Assembly (NCBI GenBank): GCA_000004695.1
Contig: CM000152.2
Coordinates: 4,672,001-4,736,000, forward strand
Direction: 5' to 3'
DNA from: Dictyostelium discoideum
Taxonomy: Eukaryota
DNA: 64,000 nucleotides
Numbering within the stretch: position 1 is the stretch's first letter; each line of letters begins with the position of its first letter. Shown here piece after piece: positions 13,430 to 42,927 of this stretch. The position numbers and the translations under genes are program-made. The notes below the pieces were generated by a model. It saw only the letters and a program-made list of their open reading frames with translations, ran no database searches and was not told the origin of the DNA.

Positions 13430-14592
13430 ATGCAAACAACAAACACACAAACACCACCACTACCACAAAGTATTGACGAGATTAAATCTAAATCTTATCA
13501 TTCTAGTGAATTAGATATACTTGGATGTAAACATTATGCAAGAAATTGTAAAATTAAAGCAGCATGTTGTGGTAGAATTTATGTTTGTAGATTATGTCAT
13601 GCTGATGATCCAGTAAATTTTAAACATGAAATAAACAGACATGCAACCAAAGAAGTTTTATGTATGTTTTGTCAAACATTACAACCAGTTAGTAAACAAT
13701 GTATAAACAATGATTGTAATAAAGAATTTGCAAGATACTTTTGCGATGTTTGTAAATTCTATGATGATTCTCCAACTAAAAAAATTTATCATTGTGATAA
13801 ATGTGGTATTTGTAGAGTTGGTTCACGTGATGATTATATTCATTGTAAGTGTGTTTTAAAAAATAAACATTTATTTATATTTATAATTTAAAATAATTAT
13901 AATAACCAATTAATAAATTCATACTTATCTATTATAAAGGTGATAAATGTAATGGTTGTTTAAATAAAAGTGGTTTTAATTCACATAAATGTATTGAAAA
14001 TAAATTTTCAAATTGTCCAATTTGTATGGAAGATTTATTTAGTAGTCGTGAACCATCAACACCATTTGATTGTGGACATATGATCCATAGTTCATGTTAT
14101 AATGATTTCATTAAATCTGGTTCTTTTAAATGCCCAATTTGTAAAAAGTATTATAATATTTTTATTTTATTTTATTTATTTCTTTTATTTTATTATTTAT
14201 TTTATTTATTAACTTTCTATTTAAATAGATCTATAGGTAAAATGCATTGGAAACATACAGATAATATAATAAAAAGAAGTAAAATGCCTGAAATGTATAG
14301 TGGTAGTACTGTTTCAATTTTATGTAATGATTGCCAAGAGAAATGTGTTGATCAACCATTTCATTTCATTGGTACAAAATGTACCTCTTGTGGTAGTTAT
14401 AATACAACAATCACTTCAAAAAATATAATAATTGATGAGACAAAAGATTCAAGTTTCACTGTTGTTGAAGATGCTGAAGAAGATGAAGAAGATGAAGAAG
14501 AAGAAGATGAAGAAGGTGAAAGATTGGGTGAGGATGAAGAAGTTGTTGAAGGCGATAACGATGAAGATGATGATGAAGAAGTCGTTGAAGAA

Positions 14593-14631
<39 letters not shown>

Positions 14632-14634
14632 TAA
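13430..14634 (+). CDS. RING finger and CHY zinc finger protein (RCHY1/Pirh2 E3 ligase homolog). Three exons: 13430..13844, 13940..14147, 14229..14634.
   Basis: Contains CHY and CTCHY Cys/His arrays (CKHYARNCKIKAACCGRIYVCRLCH...CDKCGICRVG), a RING-H2 (NCPICMEDLF...CGHMIHSSCY...CPICKK) and a zinc ribbon (ILCNDCQEK...CTSCGSYNT). Donors are Tgtaagt (phase 1, reconstitutes TGT Cys) and AAgtatta (phase 2, gives AAA Lys). The junction CPICKK|SIGKM matches Pirh2 CPICSKSLGDM. Confidence 0.8.
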
Positions 14635-14749
14635 AGAAAATAAATAAATAAAATCAAAGATTGTAAATAAAAGTTTTTTTTTTTTTTTTTTTTTTTTTAT
14701 ATTTTTTTTTTTTTTTTTTTTTTTTATTTATATATCAAATTCAATAAAT

Positions 14750-15178
14750 TTATTGTTTGGAATCGAAACTGACTAAATCTGGGATATCATCAGTGTTGGC
14801 ATTTTTAGCAGCGCTGAAAGCATCGGCCATCTTTTTAATTTGGTTGAGGTTTTCGGCACCGAGTTGAGCAATAACGTGTGGGATTGAAGCCATTGGTTTG
14901 GTTTCGTTTTTACCAGAGATGACAAAAGTTTTGCTGGCAGTTTGGACTGATGGGTTTTTGAAGTGGATGATGTTACCGTCAGCTTTGAAGAAATTGGCTT
15001 CTTCGACTGCACCAATTGGTTTGACACCGAGGTTAGCTAATTTAACGTGGAGTTTTTTGTCATCAACAGAGGTGGTGCTCTTGTGGGTGACTTGTTGCTT
15101 TCTACGCATGGAACCTTTACCACCAGTACGTACTCTTTCTTCAGCTAATTTGTTTAATCTTGCAATTTCGGCGTCCAT
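14750..15178 (-). CDS. btf3: BTF3 / nascent polypeptide-associated complex beta subunit.
   Basis: The 142-aa protein [34 protein letters not shown]...NPSVQTAS...QLGAENL aligns along its whole length with human BTF3/NACB. Codon usage is low-AT and looks highly expressed. Single exon. Coordinates are taken from the ORF track. Confidence 0.85.
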
Positions 15179-37075: not shown

Positions 37076-39232
37076 ATGACAATAACAAGTCCAGTAATTA
37101 AAACGCCACCATTAAATTCAGAGATTAGACTTGAATCAAATTTAACAGTTGAATCAGGTGATATTGAAATTAATGAAAAAGATATTGTAAATGCATCGGA
37201 AGTAATAGTAATTTTAGATGCAGGATCGCAATATAGTAAAGTGATTGATAGAAGAGTTAGAGAATTAAATGTTGCATCAGAAATTCATCCATTAAATATA
37301 GATTTATTAGAATTAATTAAGATTAAATCAAAATCAGGATCAACTATTAAAGGTATAATTATCTCTGGTGGTCCAGAGAGTGTCTATGGTGAGAATGCAC
37401 CAAAATTCGATAAATCATTATTCTCTGAGAAATTAAATTTACCAATATTTGGTATTTGTTATGGTATGCAATTAATGAATTATATATTTGGTGGAAAGGT
37501 TGAAAGTAATTCACAACGTGAAGATGGTGTGCACAATATTGAGATTTTAAAAGATGAAAATCAACAACTTGTTTCAAAACTATTTAAAAATTTAAATCAA
37601 ACCGAGCAAGTTTTATTAACACATGGTGATAGTGTTACAAAGATTGCAGATGGATTTAAAATCATTTGTAAATCAGACGATGGTATTGTATCAGGTATTG
37701 AGAATGAAAGATTGGGCTATTATGGCGTGCAATTCCATCCAGAGGTTGATTTAACTACCAACGGTAAGAAAATGTTTTCAAACTTTTTAATTGACATTTG
37801 TGGTTGTAGTGCAAATTATACATTGGATGATCGTGAACAACAAGCAATCACCTATATCAAATCTATAGTTTCAAATAAAAAAGTATTGGTTTTAGTATCG
37901 GGTGGTGTAGATTCAACAGTTTGTGCAGCATTAATTTCAAAAGCAATTGGTCCTGAAAATGTTATTGCATTACATATTGATAATGGTTTCATGAGAAAAG
38001 ATGAGAGTTTAAATGTTGAAAAGGCATTATCAGTATTGGGTCTACATTTGATTGTTGTTGACGCATCTCAAACATTTTATAATTCAACCACCACTATCAA
38101 AGGCCATTTAACCTCATCGTTGAAAGAAACAATATCACCAGAAGAAAGAAGAAAAATCATTGGTGATACTTTTATGAGAGTTGCAGAGAATGAAGTTAAG
38201 AAATTAGGTTTACAACCAGAGGATGTTTATTTAGCCCAGGGTACACTTCGTCCAGATTTAATTGAATCTTCAAGTAAAACAGTTAGTGGTGTTGCCGATG
38301 TTATTAAAACTCATCATAATGATACAGAATTGGTTAGAATCCTTAGAGATTCAGGTAGAGTAGTTGAGCCATTAAAAGATTATCATAAAGATGAAGTTAG
38401 AGAATTAGGTAAATCATTAGGTCTTTCAGATTCTTTGGTATGGCGTCAACCTTTCCCTGGCCCAGGTTTAGCAATTCGTATCATTTGTGCTGATGAACCT
38501 TATCTAGTGAATTATGATTTTACAAATAATGTCGTGCAATATTTAGTAACCGGTGAAGCTTCCTCAGAGTTGGAATCAGAAGTTAAAATTAAAATTGATA
38601 AACAATTAACAGAGATGAAATGTAAACGTCAAGATAAAATTACAATTAAACCAGTTTTATTACCAATTCAAACTGTTGGTGTTCAAGGTGATGGTAGAAC
38701 TTATTCTTATTTATTAGGTCTTTATAGTTCAGAGAATTCAACAATCGACCAAATTCCTTGGTCTTATATTTTCAATTTAGCTAGAACTATACCAAAGATT
38801 TGTCATAATATAAATAGAGTGGTTTTCATTTTCTCTCAAAATGCTACTAAACATACAAATATTAAAGTTTCAAATGAACCAGTTAAACATATCACACCAA
38901 CTCGTTTAACTCCTGATGTTATTAAACAACTTCAACATGCTGATTCAATAGTTTCAGAACAACTCTATAAATATAATTTAATTAAATCACTATCCCAAGT
39001 TCCCGTTGTATCATTACCAATAGATTTCGGTGTTACAGGTAATAGATCAATCGCAATTCGTACTTTTATTACAAATGATTTCATGACTGGTGTTCCTGCG
39101 ATTCCTGGTAAAAATATTAGTTTCGATTGTTTACAAGAAATTACAAATAATATTTTAACTTCTGTAAATGGTATTTCAAAAGTTTTATTTGATTGTACTT
39201 CAAAACCACCTGGTACTACTGAATTCTTATAA
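37076..39232 (+). CDS. guaA: GMP synthase [glutamine-hydrolysing], long eukaryotic type.
   Basis: The 718-aa single exon has a class-I GATase domain (ILDAGSQYSKVIDRRVRELNV, PIFGICYGMQLM with catalytic Cys, GVQFHPEV), an ATP-PPase (VLVLVSGGVDSTVCAAL) and the long C-terminal dimerisation domain typical of human GMPS. Confidence 0.9.
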   Translation: MTITSPVIKTPPLNSEIRLESNLTVESGDIEINEKDIVNASEVIVILDAGSQYSKVIDRRVRELNVASEIHPLNIDLLELIKIKSKSGSTIKGIIISGGPESVYGENAPKFDKSLFSEKLNLPIFGICYGMQLMNYIFGGKVESNSQREDGVHNIEILKDENQQLVSKLFKNLNQTEQVLLTHGDSVTKIADGFKIICKSDDGIVSGIENERLGYYGVQFHPEVDLTTNGKKMFSNFLIDICGCSANYTLDDREQQAITYIKSIVSNKKVLVLVSGGVDSTVCAALISKAIGPENVIALHIDNGFMRKDESLNVEKALSVLGLHLIVVDASQTFYNSTTTIKGHLTSSLKETISPEERRKIIGDTFMRVAENEVKKLGLQPEDVYLAQGTLRPDLIESSSKTVSGVADVIKTHHNDTELVRILRDSGRVVEPLKDYHKDEVRELGKSLGLSDSLVWRQPFPGPGLAIRIICADEPYLVNYDFTNNVVQYLVTGEASSELESEVKIKIDKQLTEMKCKRQDKITIKPVLLPIQTVGVQGDGRTYSYLLGLYSSENSTIDQIPWSYIFNLARTIPKICHNINRVVFIFSQNATKHTNIKVSNEPVKHITPTRLTPDVIKQLQHADSIVSEQLYKYNLIKSLSQVPVVSLPIDFGVTGNRSIAIRTFITNDFMTGVPAIPGKNISFDCLQEITNNILTSVNGISKVLFDCTSKPPGTTEFL

Positions 39233-39307
39233 AAAAAAAATAAAAAAATAAAAAAATAAGTAAAAAAAAAAAGAAATATAATTTTTGGGTTTATAATTTT
39301 GTTTTAT

Positions 39308-40233
39308 TTATAATAATTTAATGAAATCAAATGTTTGAACATCATTTGTGTTTGTGATAGATTTGAAAGTGATGACAATGTTGCCAGATTCGAATGACCA
39401 TGACCAATATCCACTCAAGTTTGCATCATGTTTGATTACAATTGTATGATTTGAAGTTGCTTCTTGAACTGCTTCTAAAATCATTTCATCTGAACAACGT
39501 TTTGCAAGATTTGCAGCAACTTTTTCAACAATACCTGCAAAGATATGACCGAAACTATTCTTTAAATCATCAGCAACTTTTGGATAAACTTCTTGTAATG
39601 ATGTTTCATCAATTGACCAATCAGCTGATGATTTTAATGCTTTTTTGACAGCTGCTAAATTATCTTTCATTTTTTGTTCATTTGTTTTAATATTTAAACG
39701 AGTGCTTAAAGTGTAAACACCTTGAGTTGGAATAATTGTTTCTAATTTAAAAGTATTTACATCATTTGTGTTGCAAATCTTTGGACGGAATAAAATTTGA
39801 CAATCACCATTTTCAAATTGGAATTTCCAGTATGATGATAATTTTTCATCAGCACAAATAAAAACAAATTTCTTATTTGGAACAGCTGCTAAAAATGCTT
39901 CTTTAATTAATGGATCGGCTCCGACTTTAGCCATGTTTTTAGCAAGATTACCAACTACATCTTTATAAAAGATACTACCACAACTATTTGTAACCCAAGA
40001 GTCATTACATTTTGTAATAATATCTTCAAAATCAAATTCAATAGCAAAAGCTTCACCTAATGATTTTTCAATTGCAGCTAAATTTGTTTTTAAAGATTCT
40101 TCATTATCTTTTAATGATTTTCTAAAAATTTAAAAAAAGTTTGAATAAATATTTTAAATATTAAATATTAAATATCTTTTTTTTTTTTTAATTTTATTTT
40201 TAATAAATACCTTGAAGTTAAAGCGAGAGGCAT
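39308..40233 (-). CDS. Uncharacterised 278-aa protein with an internal two-fold repeat; copy A of a tandem gene pair. Two exons: 40211..40233 and 39308..40121.
   Basis: Exon 1 (MPLALTS-R) ends at an AGgtattt donor; a ttttag acceptor reconstitutes AGA. Exon 2 reads KSLKDNEESLKTNLAAIEKSLGEAF...MAKVGADPLIKEAF...YWKFQFENGDCQILFRPKICNTNDVNTFKLE...(second half)...YWSWSFESGNIVITFKSITNTNDVQTFDFIKLL. The two halves are homologous. No family assigned. Confidence 0.65.
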
Positions 40234-41357
40234 TTTGGGTTAATAGTTTATTTTTTTATTTATTTATTTTTTTTAAATAAGAGTTTATTATTTTTTAATG
40301 TTTGATCGAATGATTTTTAAAAAAAAAACATAGTGCTTTTATATTAAAAAAAATGAAATGGATCAGGGAAATTAGAAAAAAAAAAGATTTGAAAAAACAG
40401 AAACAATTTGAAATGGAAAATAATCAAAAAATAAAATATCTTTTGGGATATTTTTTTTTTTTTTTCTAATTTTTTTTTAGTTTTTTTTTTTTTTTTTTAA
40501 TCTTTTAATTGATTAAAAAGAAAAAAAAAAAAAAAATAAAAGAATTAAATTAGTTTTTTTTTTTTTTTAAATGATATTAATAATTATTTAAATTAAATTG
40601 ATTAGAAAGAAAAAATTAAAGATATATTTAATATCAATAAAAAAGGTGAAATAAAATATAATTTGAAATTTAATTTTTTTTTATTTTTGTATTTACAATA
40701 GCTTATTTTAAAGTTTTTTGAATAAGGACGAAATTTATGAATTATCCATTTTAAATTCCAACACGAGTAAAGGTTTCCACCAAAGTATGTGTATATATCT
40801 TTACTTCAGATAATAAGGAAACATTATTATTTAATTGAGATGTTCCAGTAATTATAGTTCCTGATATATAATTGGTTTGTGAAACATTTTTGATATTGTT
40901 AATTGAATTAAATGATTCTATTATTTTTTAAAATTTTTTTTTTTTTAAATTAGTTTATAATTTAATATTATTAAATCTTTATTTTTCTTTAATTTTTTTT
41001 TTTTTTTTTAATTAAAACTTACTAAATAACATTTTATAATTTTTTATAATTTAAACTAAAATAGTACTTTTATTGTAATGAATTAGTTTGAAAATAATTT
41101 TTCATTTTATAGTTTTTTTTTTTAAGTACTAAGTAATTTTAATTTTTTTAAAATTTCCTTAAAAAATTATCTATTATAAATTATGAATCTGTTATCATTT
41201 TTATTTTTAAAATATTGTCAAAAAACCACAACTCATCTTTTAATAATTTTTAAGTGTTAAAAGATTTTAAAAAATTTAAAAAAGTTGAAAATAAAAATAT
41301 TTTTGTATTTTGTGGTAAATGTGATAATTTTAAAAAATTAATTTTTACAAATTTTAT

Positions 41358-42263
41358 TTATAATAATTTAATGAAATCAAATGTTTGAACATCATTTGTG
41401 TTTGTGATAGATTTGAAAGTGATGACAATGTTGCCAGATTCGAATGACCATGACCAATATCCACTCAAGTTTGCATCATGTTTGATTACAATTGTATGAT
41501 TTGAAGTTGCTTCTTGAACTGCTTCTAAAATCATTTCATCTGAACAACGTTTGGTAAGATTTGCAGCAACTTTTTCAACAATACCTGCAAATATATGACC
41601 GAAACTATTCTTTAAATCATCAGCAACTTTTGGATAAACTTCTTGTAATGATGTTTCATCAATTGACCAATCAGCTGATGATTTTAATGCCTTTTTAACA
41701 GCTGCTAAATTATCTTTCATTTTTTGTTCATTTGTTTTAATATTTAAACGAGTGCTTAAAGTGTAAACACCTTGAGTTGGAATAATTGTTTCTAATTTAA
41801 AAGTATTTACATCGTTTGTGTTGCAAATCTTTGGACGGAATAAAATTTGACAATCACCATTTTCAAATTGGAATTTCCAGTATGATGATAATTTTTCATC
41901 AGCACAAATAAAAACAAATTTCTTATTTGGAACAGCTGCTAAAAATGCTTCTTTAATTAATGGATCGGCTCCGACTTTAGCCATGTTTTTAGTAAGATTA
42001 CCAACTACATCTTTATAAAAGATACTACCACAACTATTTGTAACCCAGGAGTCATTACATTTTGTAATAATATCTTCAAAATCAAATTCAATAGCAAAAG
42101 CTTCACCTAATGATTTTTCAATTGCAGCTAAATTTGTTTTTAAAGATTCTTCATTATCTTTTAATGATTTTCTAAAAATTTAAATAAATATAATTAGTTA
42201 CAATTTATTTTAATAAATTAAAAATAAAAATAATAATTACCTTGAAGTTAAAGCGAGAGGCAT
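41358..42263 (-). CDS. Copy B of the tandem gene pair, 2050 bp from copy A. Two exons: 42241..42263 and 41358..42171.
   Basis: The exons are about 99% identical in nucleotide sequence to copy A, with two Ala-to-Thr replacements (NLAK to NLTK in both repeat halves) and a few synonymous changes. The 69-nt intron is unrelated in sequence to copy A's 89-nt intron. Confidence 0.65.
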
Positions 42264-42927
42264 TTTGGATTAATTTTGATTATTATTATTAATATTATTA
42301 TTAATTTAAATATGTTTTTTGAATTTATTGAATGATTTGGAAAAAAAAAAAAAGAAATTTAATTTATACAAAAAAAAAAGAAAATAATTAAGATTATTAT
42401 TTAAAAAAAAAAAGAAGAAAATAAAAAAATAAATAAAAAACAAACAATTAAAAAACTTTTTAGAAATGATTTGGAAAGGAGGATTTTTAAGATATTTTCA
42501 AAAAAAAAAAAAATAAAAAAAAAAAATGAAAAGAGATATTTTTAATAATTGAACGATTTTTACAATAAAGAAAGGTAAAGTTTGTGCGCTTTGAAATTTA
42601 AAATGGATTTCTAATTGGAATTAAAGAAGAAAAAAACAATATAACCAGGTAATTGGTCACGATCAGTCATAAAAAAAAGAAAATAATAATCTGTTTATCC
42701 TTTTTTTTTTTTTTTAGTATTTTTTTTTCATAAATTTTGATTTTTTTTTTTTTTGGGTTTTTATCAATATTATTTAAAAAATAAAAATAAAAATAAAAAA
42801 AAAATTTGGAGATTTGTTTTTTTAAAAATGAATTAAAAAAAACTGAAAGAAACGTTTCGTTTTTACCTTATTTTCGTGAAAAAAAAAAAAAAAAAAATAT
42901 ATTTGCATGTGAAAAAAAATAAATAAA

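Follow-up and report, generated by a model that had tools for sequence, protein, structure and literature searches.

The window analysed here, a stretch of 64,000 nucleotides (nt) of the Dictyostelium discoideum AX4 genome (GenBank assembly GCA_000004695.1, contig CM000152.2, positions 4,672,001 to 4,736,000), lies on chromosome 3 and contains two tandemly arranged and nearly identical genes, DDB_G0281613 (copy A) and DDB_G0281617 (copy B). Our analysis indicates, with a probability that we put at about 0.9, that the two genes constitute an old tandem pair, the second exons of which have been homogenised by recurrent, non-reciprocal interlocus gene conversion, i.e. by concerted evolution. Paralogs within a genome are closer to each other than to their positional orthologs in other genomes, sequence identity is discontinuous at the edges of a homogenised block that is set in diverged surroundings, and the orthology of the sequences flanking each copy places the duplication before the divergence of the genomes. 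Coordinates given without a locus name refer to the window.

Concerted evolution of the second exons

Copy A (39308-40233, minus strand; 278 amino acids (aa), with Ala68 and Ala214), for which the splice model and its translation give an exact match to P0024/EAL66568.1, consists of a 23-nt exon 1 (40211-40233), an 89-nt phase-2 intron (40122-40210), and an 814-nt exon 2 including the stop codon (39308-40121). Copy B (41358-42263, minus strand; 278 aa, with Thr68 and Thr214), the translation of which matches P0001/EAL66570.1 exactly, comprises exon 1 at 42241-42263 (23 nt), a phase-2 intron of 69 nt at 42172-42240, and exon 2 with the stop codon at 41358-42171 (814 nt). Both coding sequences (CDSs) are 837 nt in length and differ by exactly 8 nt, namely five synonymous differences, A68T (1 nt), and A214T (2 nt). 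The copy coordinates, strand, and gene structure proposed in a first-pass annotation of the window, which had put the differences at about 8 over 837 nt, were confirmed. The ratio of non-synonymous to synonymous divergence (dN/dS, omega) between the copies, which that annotation had recommended determining, is ~0.09, and dN ranges from 0.003 to 0.03 across Dictyostelium species.

In AX4, the copies are 99.0% identical in exon 2 and 100% identical in the last 13 nt of the intron, whereas only 48.8% of positions match between the intron bodies and 50% between the 3' flanks (+10 to +150). Alignments of the two introns are at the chance level (global z = 0.25; 131 of 300 shuffles scored equal or higher), as are those of the 3' flanks (z = -0.7 to 0.5 against shuffles). 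The 5' flanks exhibit weak similarity when judged against shuffles (z = 5-6); when 400 stretches of actual intergenic DNA in the window served as controls, between 0 and 23 of them scored as high, the count varying with the segment length and with the copy used as the query. Immediately upstream of the ATG, 10 of 12 nt match. The earlier statement that everything outside the CDSs is unalignable holds for the intron bodies and 3' flanks, but not for the final 13 intron nt, the bases preceding the ATG, or the weakly similar 5' flanks. Over the genomes compared, the paralogs of a genome are 97.7-99.0% identical in exon 2 and 69-100% in the last 13 intron nt, dropping to 49-61% over the intron body and to ~50% over the 3' flank.

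The pair was compared with the loci of a second D. discoideum strain ('FIR'; L004), D. citrinum (L001), and D. dimigraforme (L002), and with paralog loci, namely a chromosome-2 copy (L005), a second chromosome-3 array (L006), and the FIR counterpart of this array (L007); L005 and L006 were taken from a second assembly of AX4. FIR is rather divergent for a conspecific of AX4. AX4, FIR, and D. citrinum have an identical gene order, in which the pseudouridine synthase gene is followed by copy B, the spacer, copy A, and the GMP synthase gene. Across genomes, the 5' flanks of copy A align with each other at z = 22-59 and those of copy B at z = 8-33, whereas A-B comparisons reach only 3-10. For the 3' flanks, z is 18-56 between orthologs and ~0 between paralogs, and for the introns it is 6-13 between AX4 and FIR orthologs and, again, ~0 between paralogs. 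Orthologs of AX4 and FIR are 96.4-96.9% identical in exon 2, 82-95% in the intron body, and 75-99% in the flanks. This positional orthology of the flanks, introns, and spacer indicates that the duplication predates the split of D. discoideum and D. citrinum.

The coding sequences group differently from these non-coding sequences. Synonymous divergence (dS, Nei-Gojobori method) between paralogs of the same genome is 0.036 in AX4, 0.049 in FIR, 0.056 in D. citrinum, and 0.108 in D. dimigraforme, whereas it is 0.14-0.16 between AX4 and FIR and 0.36-0.41 between D. discoideum and D. citrinum, whichever A/B combination is used. In four quartets, the informative CDS sites at which paralogs, orthologs, or cross pairs share a base were counted as 17:0:0, 51:0:0 (AX4 vs D. 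citrinum), 47:0:0, and 55:0:0, and copies cluster by genome in a neighbour-joining tree. Derived synonymous changes are present in both AX4 copies, e.g. at CDS positions 144, 222, 228, 432, and 792, and others in both FIR copies (positions 72, 393, and 618), so transfer between A and B must have taken place in both lineages since the strains split. Of the polarised changes that the two paralogs of a strain have in common (AX4 vs FIR), six are AT-to-GC and one is GC-to-AT, in a genome with a G+C content at third codon positions (GC3) of ~14%; this 6:1 excess suggests GC-biased conversion or codon selection, although the sites are too few for a test.

The last 8-13 nt of the intron are common to the paralogs of a genome but are species specific: TTTAAATTTTTAG in AX4, AATTATAG in D. 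citrinum, and TTTTATTATAG in D. dimigraforme. Protein-level selection cannot explain why paralogs share species-specific intron 3' ends. On the basis of the paralog identity profiles, each putative conversion tract spans exon 2 together with the final 13 nt of the intron (39308-40134 in copy A and 41358-42184 in copy B, both minus strand). Of the 16 copies examined, nearly all have an identical 23-nt exon 1, from which D. citrinum copy B and the chromosome-2 paralog each depart by one base; being so constant across the family, exon 1 is uninformative on conversion. The original suggestion of conversion confined to exons is accordingly valid for exon 2, with the qualification that the tract would include a few adjacent bases and that exon 1 does not bear on the question.

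Mechanism and alternative explanations

The recombination mechanism that we infer from this pattern would start from a DNA break in one copy, which is repaired by homologous recombination with the paralog 1.1 kb away as the template. Extension of the heteroduplex would be limited to usable homology, i.e. the 814-bp exon 2, which has a G+C content of ~29% and normal sequence complexity and would be held by protein-level selection. The surrounding DNA is 85-90% A+T, of low complexity, and rich in indels, and substitutions and indels have altered it beyond recognition. With usable homology present only in exon 2, tracts would be expected to end ~13 nt into the intron at one side and within a few nt of the stop codon, downstream of it, at the other. 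The identity of exon 1 need not reflect conversion, as its near-invariance across the family would suffice.

The first-pass annotation had offered a recent duplication with rapid turnover of non-coding sequence as one of two possibilities, gene conversion being the other; the grouping of the coding sequences by genome favours the latter, and an orthologous two-copy locus in D. citrinum disposes of the former. A pair that arose very lately in the AX4 lineage, with introns and flanks then turned over extremely fast by slippage and indels, would be consistent with the low paralog dS of 0.036 and with the quick gain of indels in the A+T-rich non-coding DNA of Dictyostelium (the intron of copy A is 89 nt in AX4 and 84 nt in the other strain). 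However, the introns and flanks of the two copies are not as similar as their exons, and the two-copy locus, each copy with its own intron and flanks, is orthologous, together with the spacer and the spacer gene, in the second strain and D. citrinum. Moreover, orthologous introns and flanks are still 75-99% identical at a CDS dS of 0.14, whereas paralogous ones are at the chance level at a dS of 0.036; non-coding turnover is therefore far too slow for a recent duplication, and we consider this explanation very unlikely. Even less probable, to an extreme degree, is a single gene assembled twice. Segments of 0.8 kb that are nearly identical and only 2 kb apart classically lead to collapsed or duplicated sequence in assemblies, but the copies have distinct introns and flanks and 8 fixed differences, both protein sequences are identical in two independent AX4 assemblies, and tandem pairs are present at this locus in three other genomes. 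The distinct flanks and the independent assemblies exclude the assembly duplication that the annotation had named as a possible refutation.

Independent evolution of the copies since an old duplication, with their near-identity, synonymous sites included, maintained by purifying selection and codon bias, draws on the high conservation of the protein (the dN and omega values given above) and on the use of CGT for three of four Arg codons. The orthologs, however, show unrestrained synonymous divergence (dS 0.14-0.41), the bias in codon usage is mild (GC3 0.14-0.15) and similar to that of neighbouring genes, and the paralogs also share their species-specific intron 3' ends. As every informative site groups paralogs (17:0, 51:0, 47:0, and 55:0), a pattern that independent evolution under constraint cannot yield, there is very little probability that selection acted alone. 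Homogenisation of the pair by misaligned crossovers, or by loss and re-duplication (birth-and-death), instead of by non-crossover conversion is in keeping with the variation in copy number, with three linked genes in D. dimigraforme and a second array of three copies in FIR vs four in AX4. A crossover between A and B would nevertheless delete or triplicate the spacer with its gene, DDB_G0281615, and join A-type to B-type flanks, whereas AX4, FIR, and D. citrinum all retain two copies, both types of flanks and introns, and the spacer gene in intact form, and only exon 2 has been exchanged. Such crossing-over or birth-and-death thus appears improbable for the pair, though somewhat less so than the other alternatives.

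Several points weigh against gene conversion in the form proposed here. The evidence for transfer is indirect, and the limits of the tracts derive from the present-day identity profiles of four genomes. Splicing places some constraint on the intron's 3' end, and this slightly weakens the argument from shared intron ends. When positions 39233-42927 are compared with L004 9330-13059, the dS between AX4 and FIR (0.14-0.16) exceeds the mismatch of alignable non-coding DNA in three of five segments (4-8%; 11-12% in the other two). This excess might reflect input from other paralogs or a mutation bias at G/C-ending codons. Finally, the D. dimigraforme locus is rearranged, with three copies and other neighbours, so unequal crossing-over or duplication and loss would contribute somewhere in the clade.

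Ala/Thr differences and organization of the locus

The first-pass annotation had read the two amino acid differences between the copies as the same Ala-to-Thr change in both halves of the internally repeated protein. This reading was not upheld. From copy A to copy B, A68T is a change of GCT to ACT and A214T of GCA to ACC; when the halves are aligned against each other, A68 pairs with A210 and A214 with A72, so that the two sites lie out of register by one helical turn. AX4 copy B is the only copy with Thr68 (ACT), the codon specifying Ala in 14 of the 15 other copies and Ser (TCT) in the D. dimigraforme copy dim_2, whereas three of the four copies examined from D. discoideum, namely both FIR copies and AX4 copy B, have Thr214 (ACC), AX4 copy A alone having Ala214 (GCA). 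Non-equivalent positions in the repeat and opposite polarity argue against a parallel Ala/Thr change, and the sequences indicate two independent events that occurred in different copies and in opposite directions. In copy A, codon 214 (39503-39505) has changed from ACC to GCA, i.e. at two bases, and GCA is also present in the chromosome-2 paralog DDB_G0271254, the neighbouring variants of which were not co-transferred to copy A. The change may have arisen by a mutation of several nucleotides at once or by an ectopic micro-conversion, of very short length, from the chromosome-2 paralog.

The window has a G+C content of ~20%, and its introns are short and A+T-rich. The spacer between the copies (40234-41357; 1124 nt) is not duplicated and aligns end to end with L004 10907-12049 (88.7% identity). 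It contains DDB_G0281615 (40751-41032, minus strand), a two-exon gene for a protein of 58 aa (exon 1, 41023-41032; intron, 40918-41022; exon 2 with the stop codon, 40751-40917), the reconstructed peptide of which, MLFKSFNSINNIKNVSQTNYISGTIITGTSQLNNNVSLLSEVKIYTHTLVETFTRVGI, is 100% identical over its full length. This segment is kept at the matching position in FIR (96%) and D. citrinum (81% at the nt level and 71% at the aa level). It is the sole part of the spacer conserved in D. citrinum, as identified by a low-complexity-masked search with the non-repetitive core; unmasked blastn of the spacer yielded A+T-rich noise alone. A protein database search with the DDB_G0281615 peptide returned nothing beyond DDB_G0281615 itself. 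The pair is enclosed by two genes that served as synteny anchors, both identified as open reading frames (ORFs) on the plus strand: a GMP synthase gene (37076-39232), which is convergent with copy A and whose neighbouring counterparts in L001 and L004 carry GATase and GMP_synt_C Pfam domains, and a tRNA pseudouridine synthase-like gene (42928-44442), which is divergent from copy B and whose counterpart in L004 carries PseudoU_synth_1. No third copy of the pair's gene was found by tblastn across the 64-kb window, and an Rfam scan of 38500-43500 gave no match.

In D. dimigraforme (L002 10001-17252), two other small genes are located between the members of the pair, and the neighbouring 576-aa gene lies on the opposite side and in the opposite orientation. 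The 5' flank of the copy at 14235-15140 is still of the A type (z = 12-16). The D. purpureum homolog (L003 10001-10840), which encodes a 77% identical protein, is located in a different gene neighbourhood and is a single uninterrupted ORF. As the phase-2 intron after codon 7 is present in all copies examined from D. discoideum, D. citrinum, and D. dimigraforme and is missing in D. purpureum, it was gained or lost within the genus.

The protein module, other family members, and comparison with known duplicates

The 278-aa protein consists of two alpha+beta modules of ~139 residues each. Its internal duplication, noted at first sight, was substantiated by the identity of the halves (40% over 131 aa, E = 2e-23), but the repeat unit, originally put at ~120 aa, is ~139 aa according to a single-module hidden Markov model (HMM), with one to five units per protein. 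In copy A, the HMM boundaries place module 1 (aa 1-139) at 39728-40233, a span that includes the intron, and module 2 (aa 140-278) at 39311-39727, both on the minus strand. An AlphaFold2 model built with 19 family sequences has a mean predicted local distance difference test (pLDDT) score of 93.4 and a predicted template modelling (pTM) score of 0.84; each half is predicted to form a helical part (helices within residues 5-87 in module 1) followed by a three-stranded sheet (strands within 92-119) that bears the YW..F..G....F motifs, and this sheet corresponds to the beta-rich motifs previously described at the end of each half. The best-conserved positions of the module are G30, G56, D78, K82-E83-A84, Y106, G114, and N126, and the module alignment contains no conserved Cys or His pattern. 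The reported lack of a signal peptide agrees with the sequence, in which an N-terminal hydrophobic segment is absent; for this reason, the protein is probably cytosolic.

An HMMER scan of 1.84 billion cluster representatives identified 270 relatives at E <= 0.001. A profile search of a word-indexed protein database returned only 3 proteins and contributed no further information. Named relatives are from the dictyostelids Cavenderia, Acytostelium, and D. purpureum and from Physarum, Percolomonas (Heterolobosea), and Ambispora (Glomeromycota), and many others are unlabelled environmental eukaryote sequences; the taxonomic spread of the module (Amoebozoa, Heterolobosea, and Glomeromycota) is patchy. 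Four modules are present in glomeromycete fungi (Ambispora, P0055), and two representative proteins, one from Percolomonas (P0064/P0191) and one unlabelled (P0130), carry a PH domain at the N-terminus, ahead of the module. In line with the initial failure to place the protein in any known family, the best Pfam match of the full-length protein had an E-value of 0.063 (13.5 bits vs a cut-off of 25), no common family emerged from Pfam searches with 50 diverse single modules, and in 20 relatives Pfam domains were found only outside the module, the recurrent one being the N-terminal PH domain. When the protein and a profile of 50 module sequences were used to search PDB sequences, only spurious matches were obtained; one of these, to polyubiquitin (E = 0.005), was rejected as a 27-residue motif counted four times. 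Fold searches with the predicted structure yielded no significant or confident fold match. Two groups that appeared as structural neighbours only were also rejected: the HECT-domain C-lobe, for which a confident superposition together with a conserved catalytic cysteine was not obtained, and the zincin-like metallopeptidases (SprT/Wss1, M1, and MATCAP), for which the combination of a zinc-binding HExxH/HxxEH motif on the active-site helix with a significant fold match was not found.

With regard to the role of the protein, which we infer with low confidence, a non-enzymatic binding or scaffold function seems most likely. We further suggest, at slightly less than even odds, that the module represents a previously undescribed domain, possibly with a new fold, that its fusion to PH domains hints at membrane-proximal binding or scaffolding, and that the multi-copy, conversion-homogenised arrays would imply selection for dosage or sequence uniformity in a protein that interacts and perhaps self-assembles. 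Codon bias is mild (GC3 0.14-0.15), and the read counts of two second-array paralogs in vegetative cells are low (PMC12405889). High expression together with codon bias was considered as the reason for the arrays and dropped on these grounds. The two paralogs, which are listed as 'unknown', are up-regulated in a DnmA knock-out alongside small heat-shock genes and transposons (PMC12405889), and another family member, DDB_G0290465, appears once in an O-fucose pull-down table (PMC11507795). Our literature searches found no study of the DDB_G0281613/DDB_G0281617 pair.

The genome-wide check for further members that the first-pass annotation had called for identified DDB_G0281187, DDB_G0281193, DDB_G0281199, and DDB_G0281201, which form the second chromosome-3 array, DDB_G0271254 on chromosome 2, and DDB_G0290465. 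The four array members and DDB_G0271254 resemble the pair in their 278-aa two-module architecture and phase-2 intron after codon 7 and share 93-94% protein identity, whereas DDB_G0290465 (P0186; 695 aa) differs in having five modules. In the second AX4 assembly, the second array (L006 2966-10901; chromosome 3, ~4.25 Mb) consists of four copies, three in one orientation and one divergent, and in FIR (L007 8601-13808) of three copies. Its copies each have a different intron and also cluster by genome in the dS tree, and the second array, too, evolves in concert. Between the three D. discoideum loci, dS is 0.4-0.65, and exchange between loci is therefore rare or absent, i.e. conversion would be essentially local.

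The pair represents a very clean but textbook case of concerted evolution, the mechanism of which is already well known, and its small added value lies in the sharpness of the homology boundary. Gene conversion would act here faster than strains diverge, in an amoeba that is haploid during vegetative growth. In practical terms, read mapping, knock-outs, and expression analysis in D. discoideum will all be complicated by the existence of seven near-identical paralogs. The module is the less settled side of the finding, combining a confident two-module prediction and the lack of a Pfam, PDB, or fold neighbour with an occurrence in at least 270 clusters over several protist lineages.

Concerted evolution of tandem coding duplicates by gene conversion limited to the coding sequence is known from the primate fetal gamma-globin genes, the Drosophila amylase and hsp70 genes, and the ribosomal-protein and TEF genes of yeast. 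As in those systems, the duplication is old, paralogs within a genome are closer than orthologs between species, and identity falls sharply where the conserved coding block ends, positional orthology being retained in flanks and introns. The vegetative phase of D. discoideum is haploid, which makes mitotic repair the likely context of the conversion. Unlike the known duplicates, the converted block in D. discoideum is a single 814-bp exon amid non-coding DNA of 85-90% A+T, which accounts for an unusually sharp boundary of homology, located ~13 nt into the intron on one side and a few nt past the stop codon on the other.

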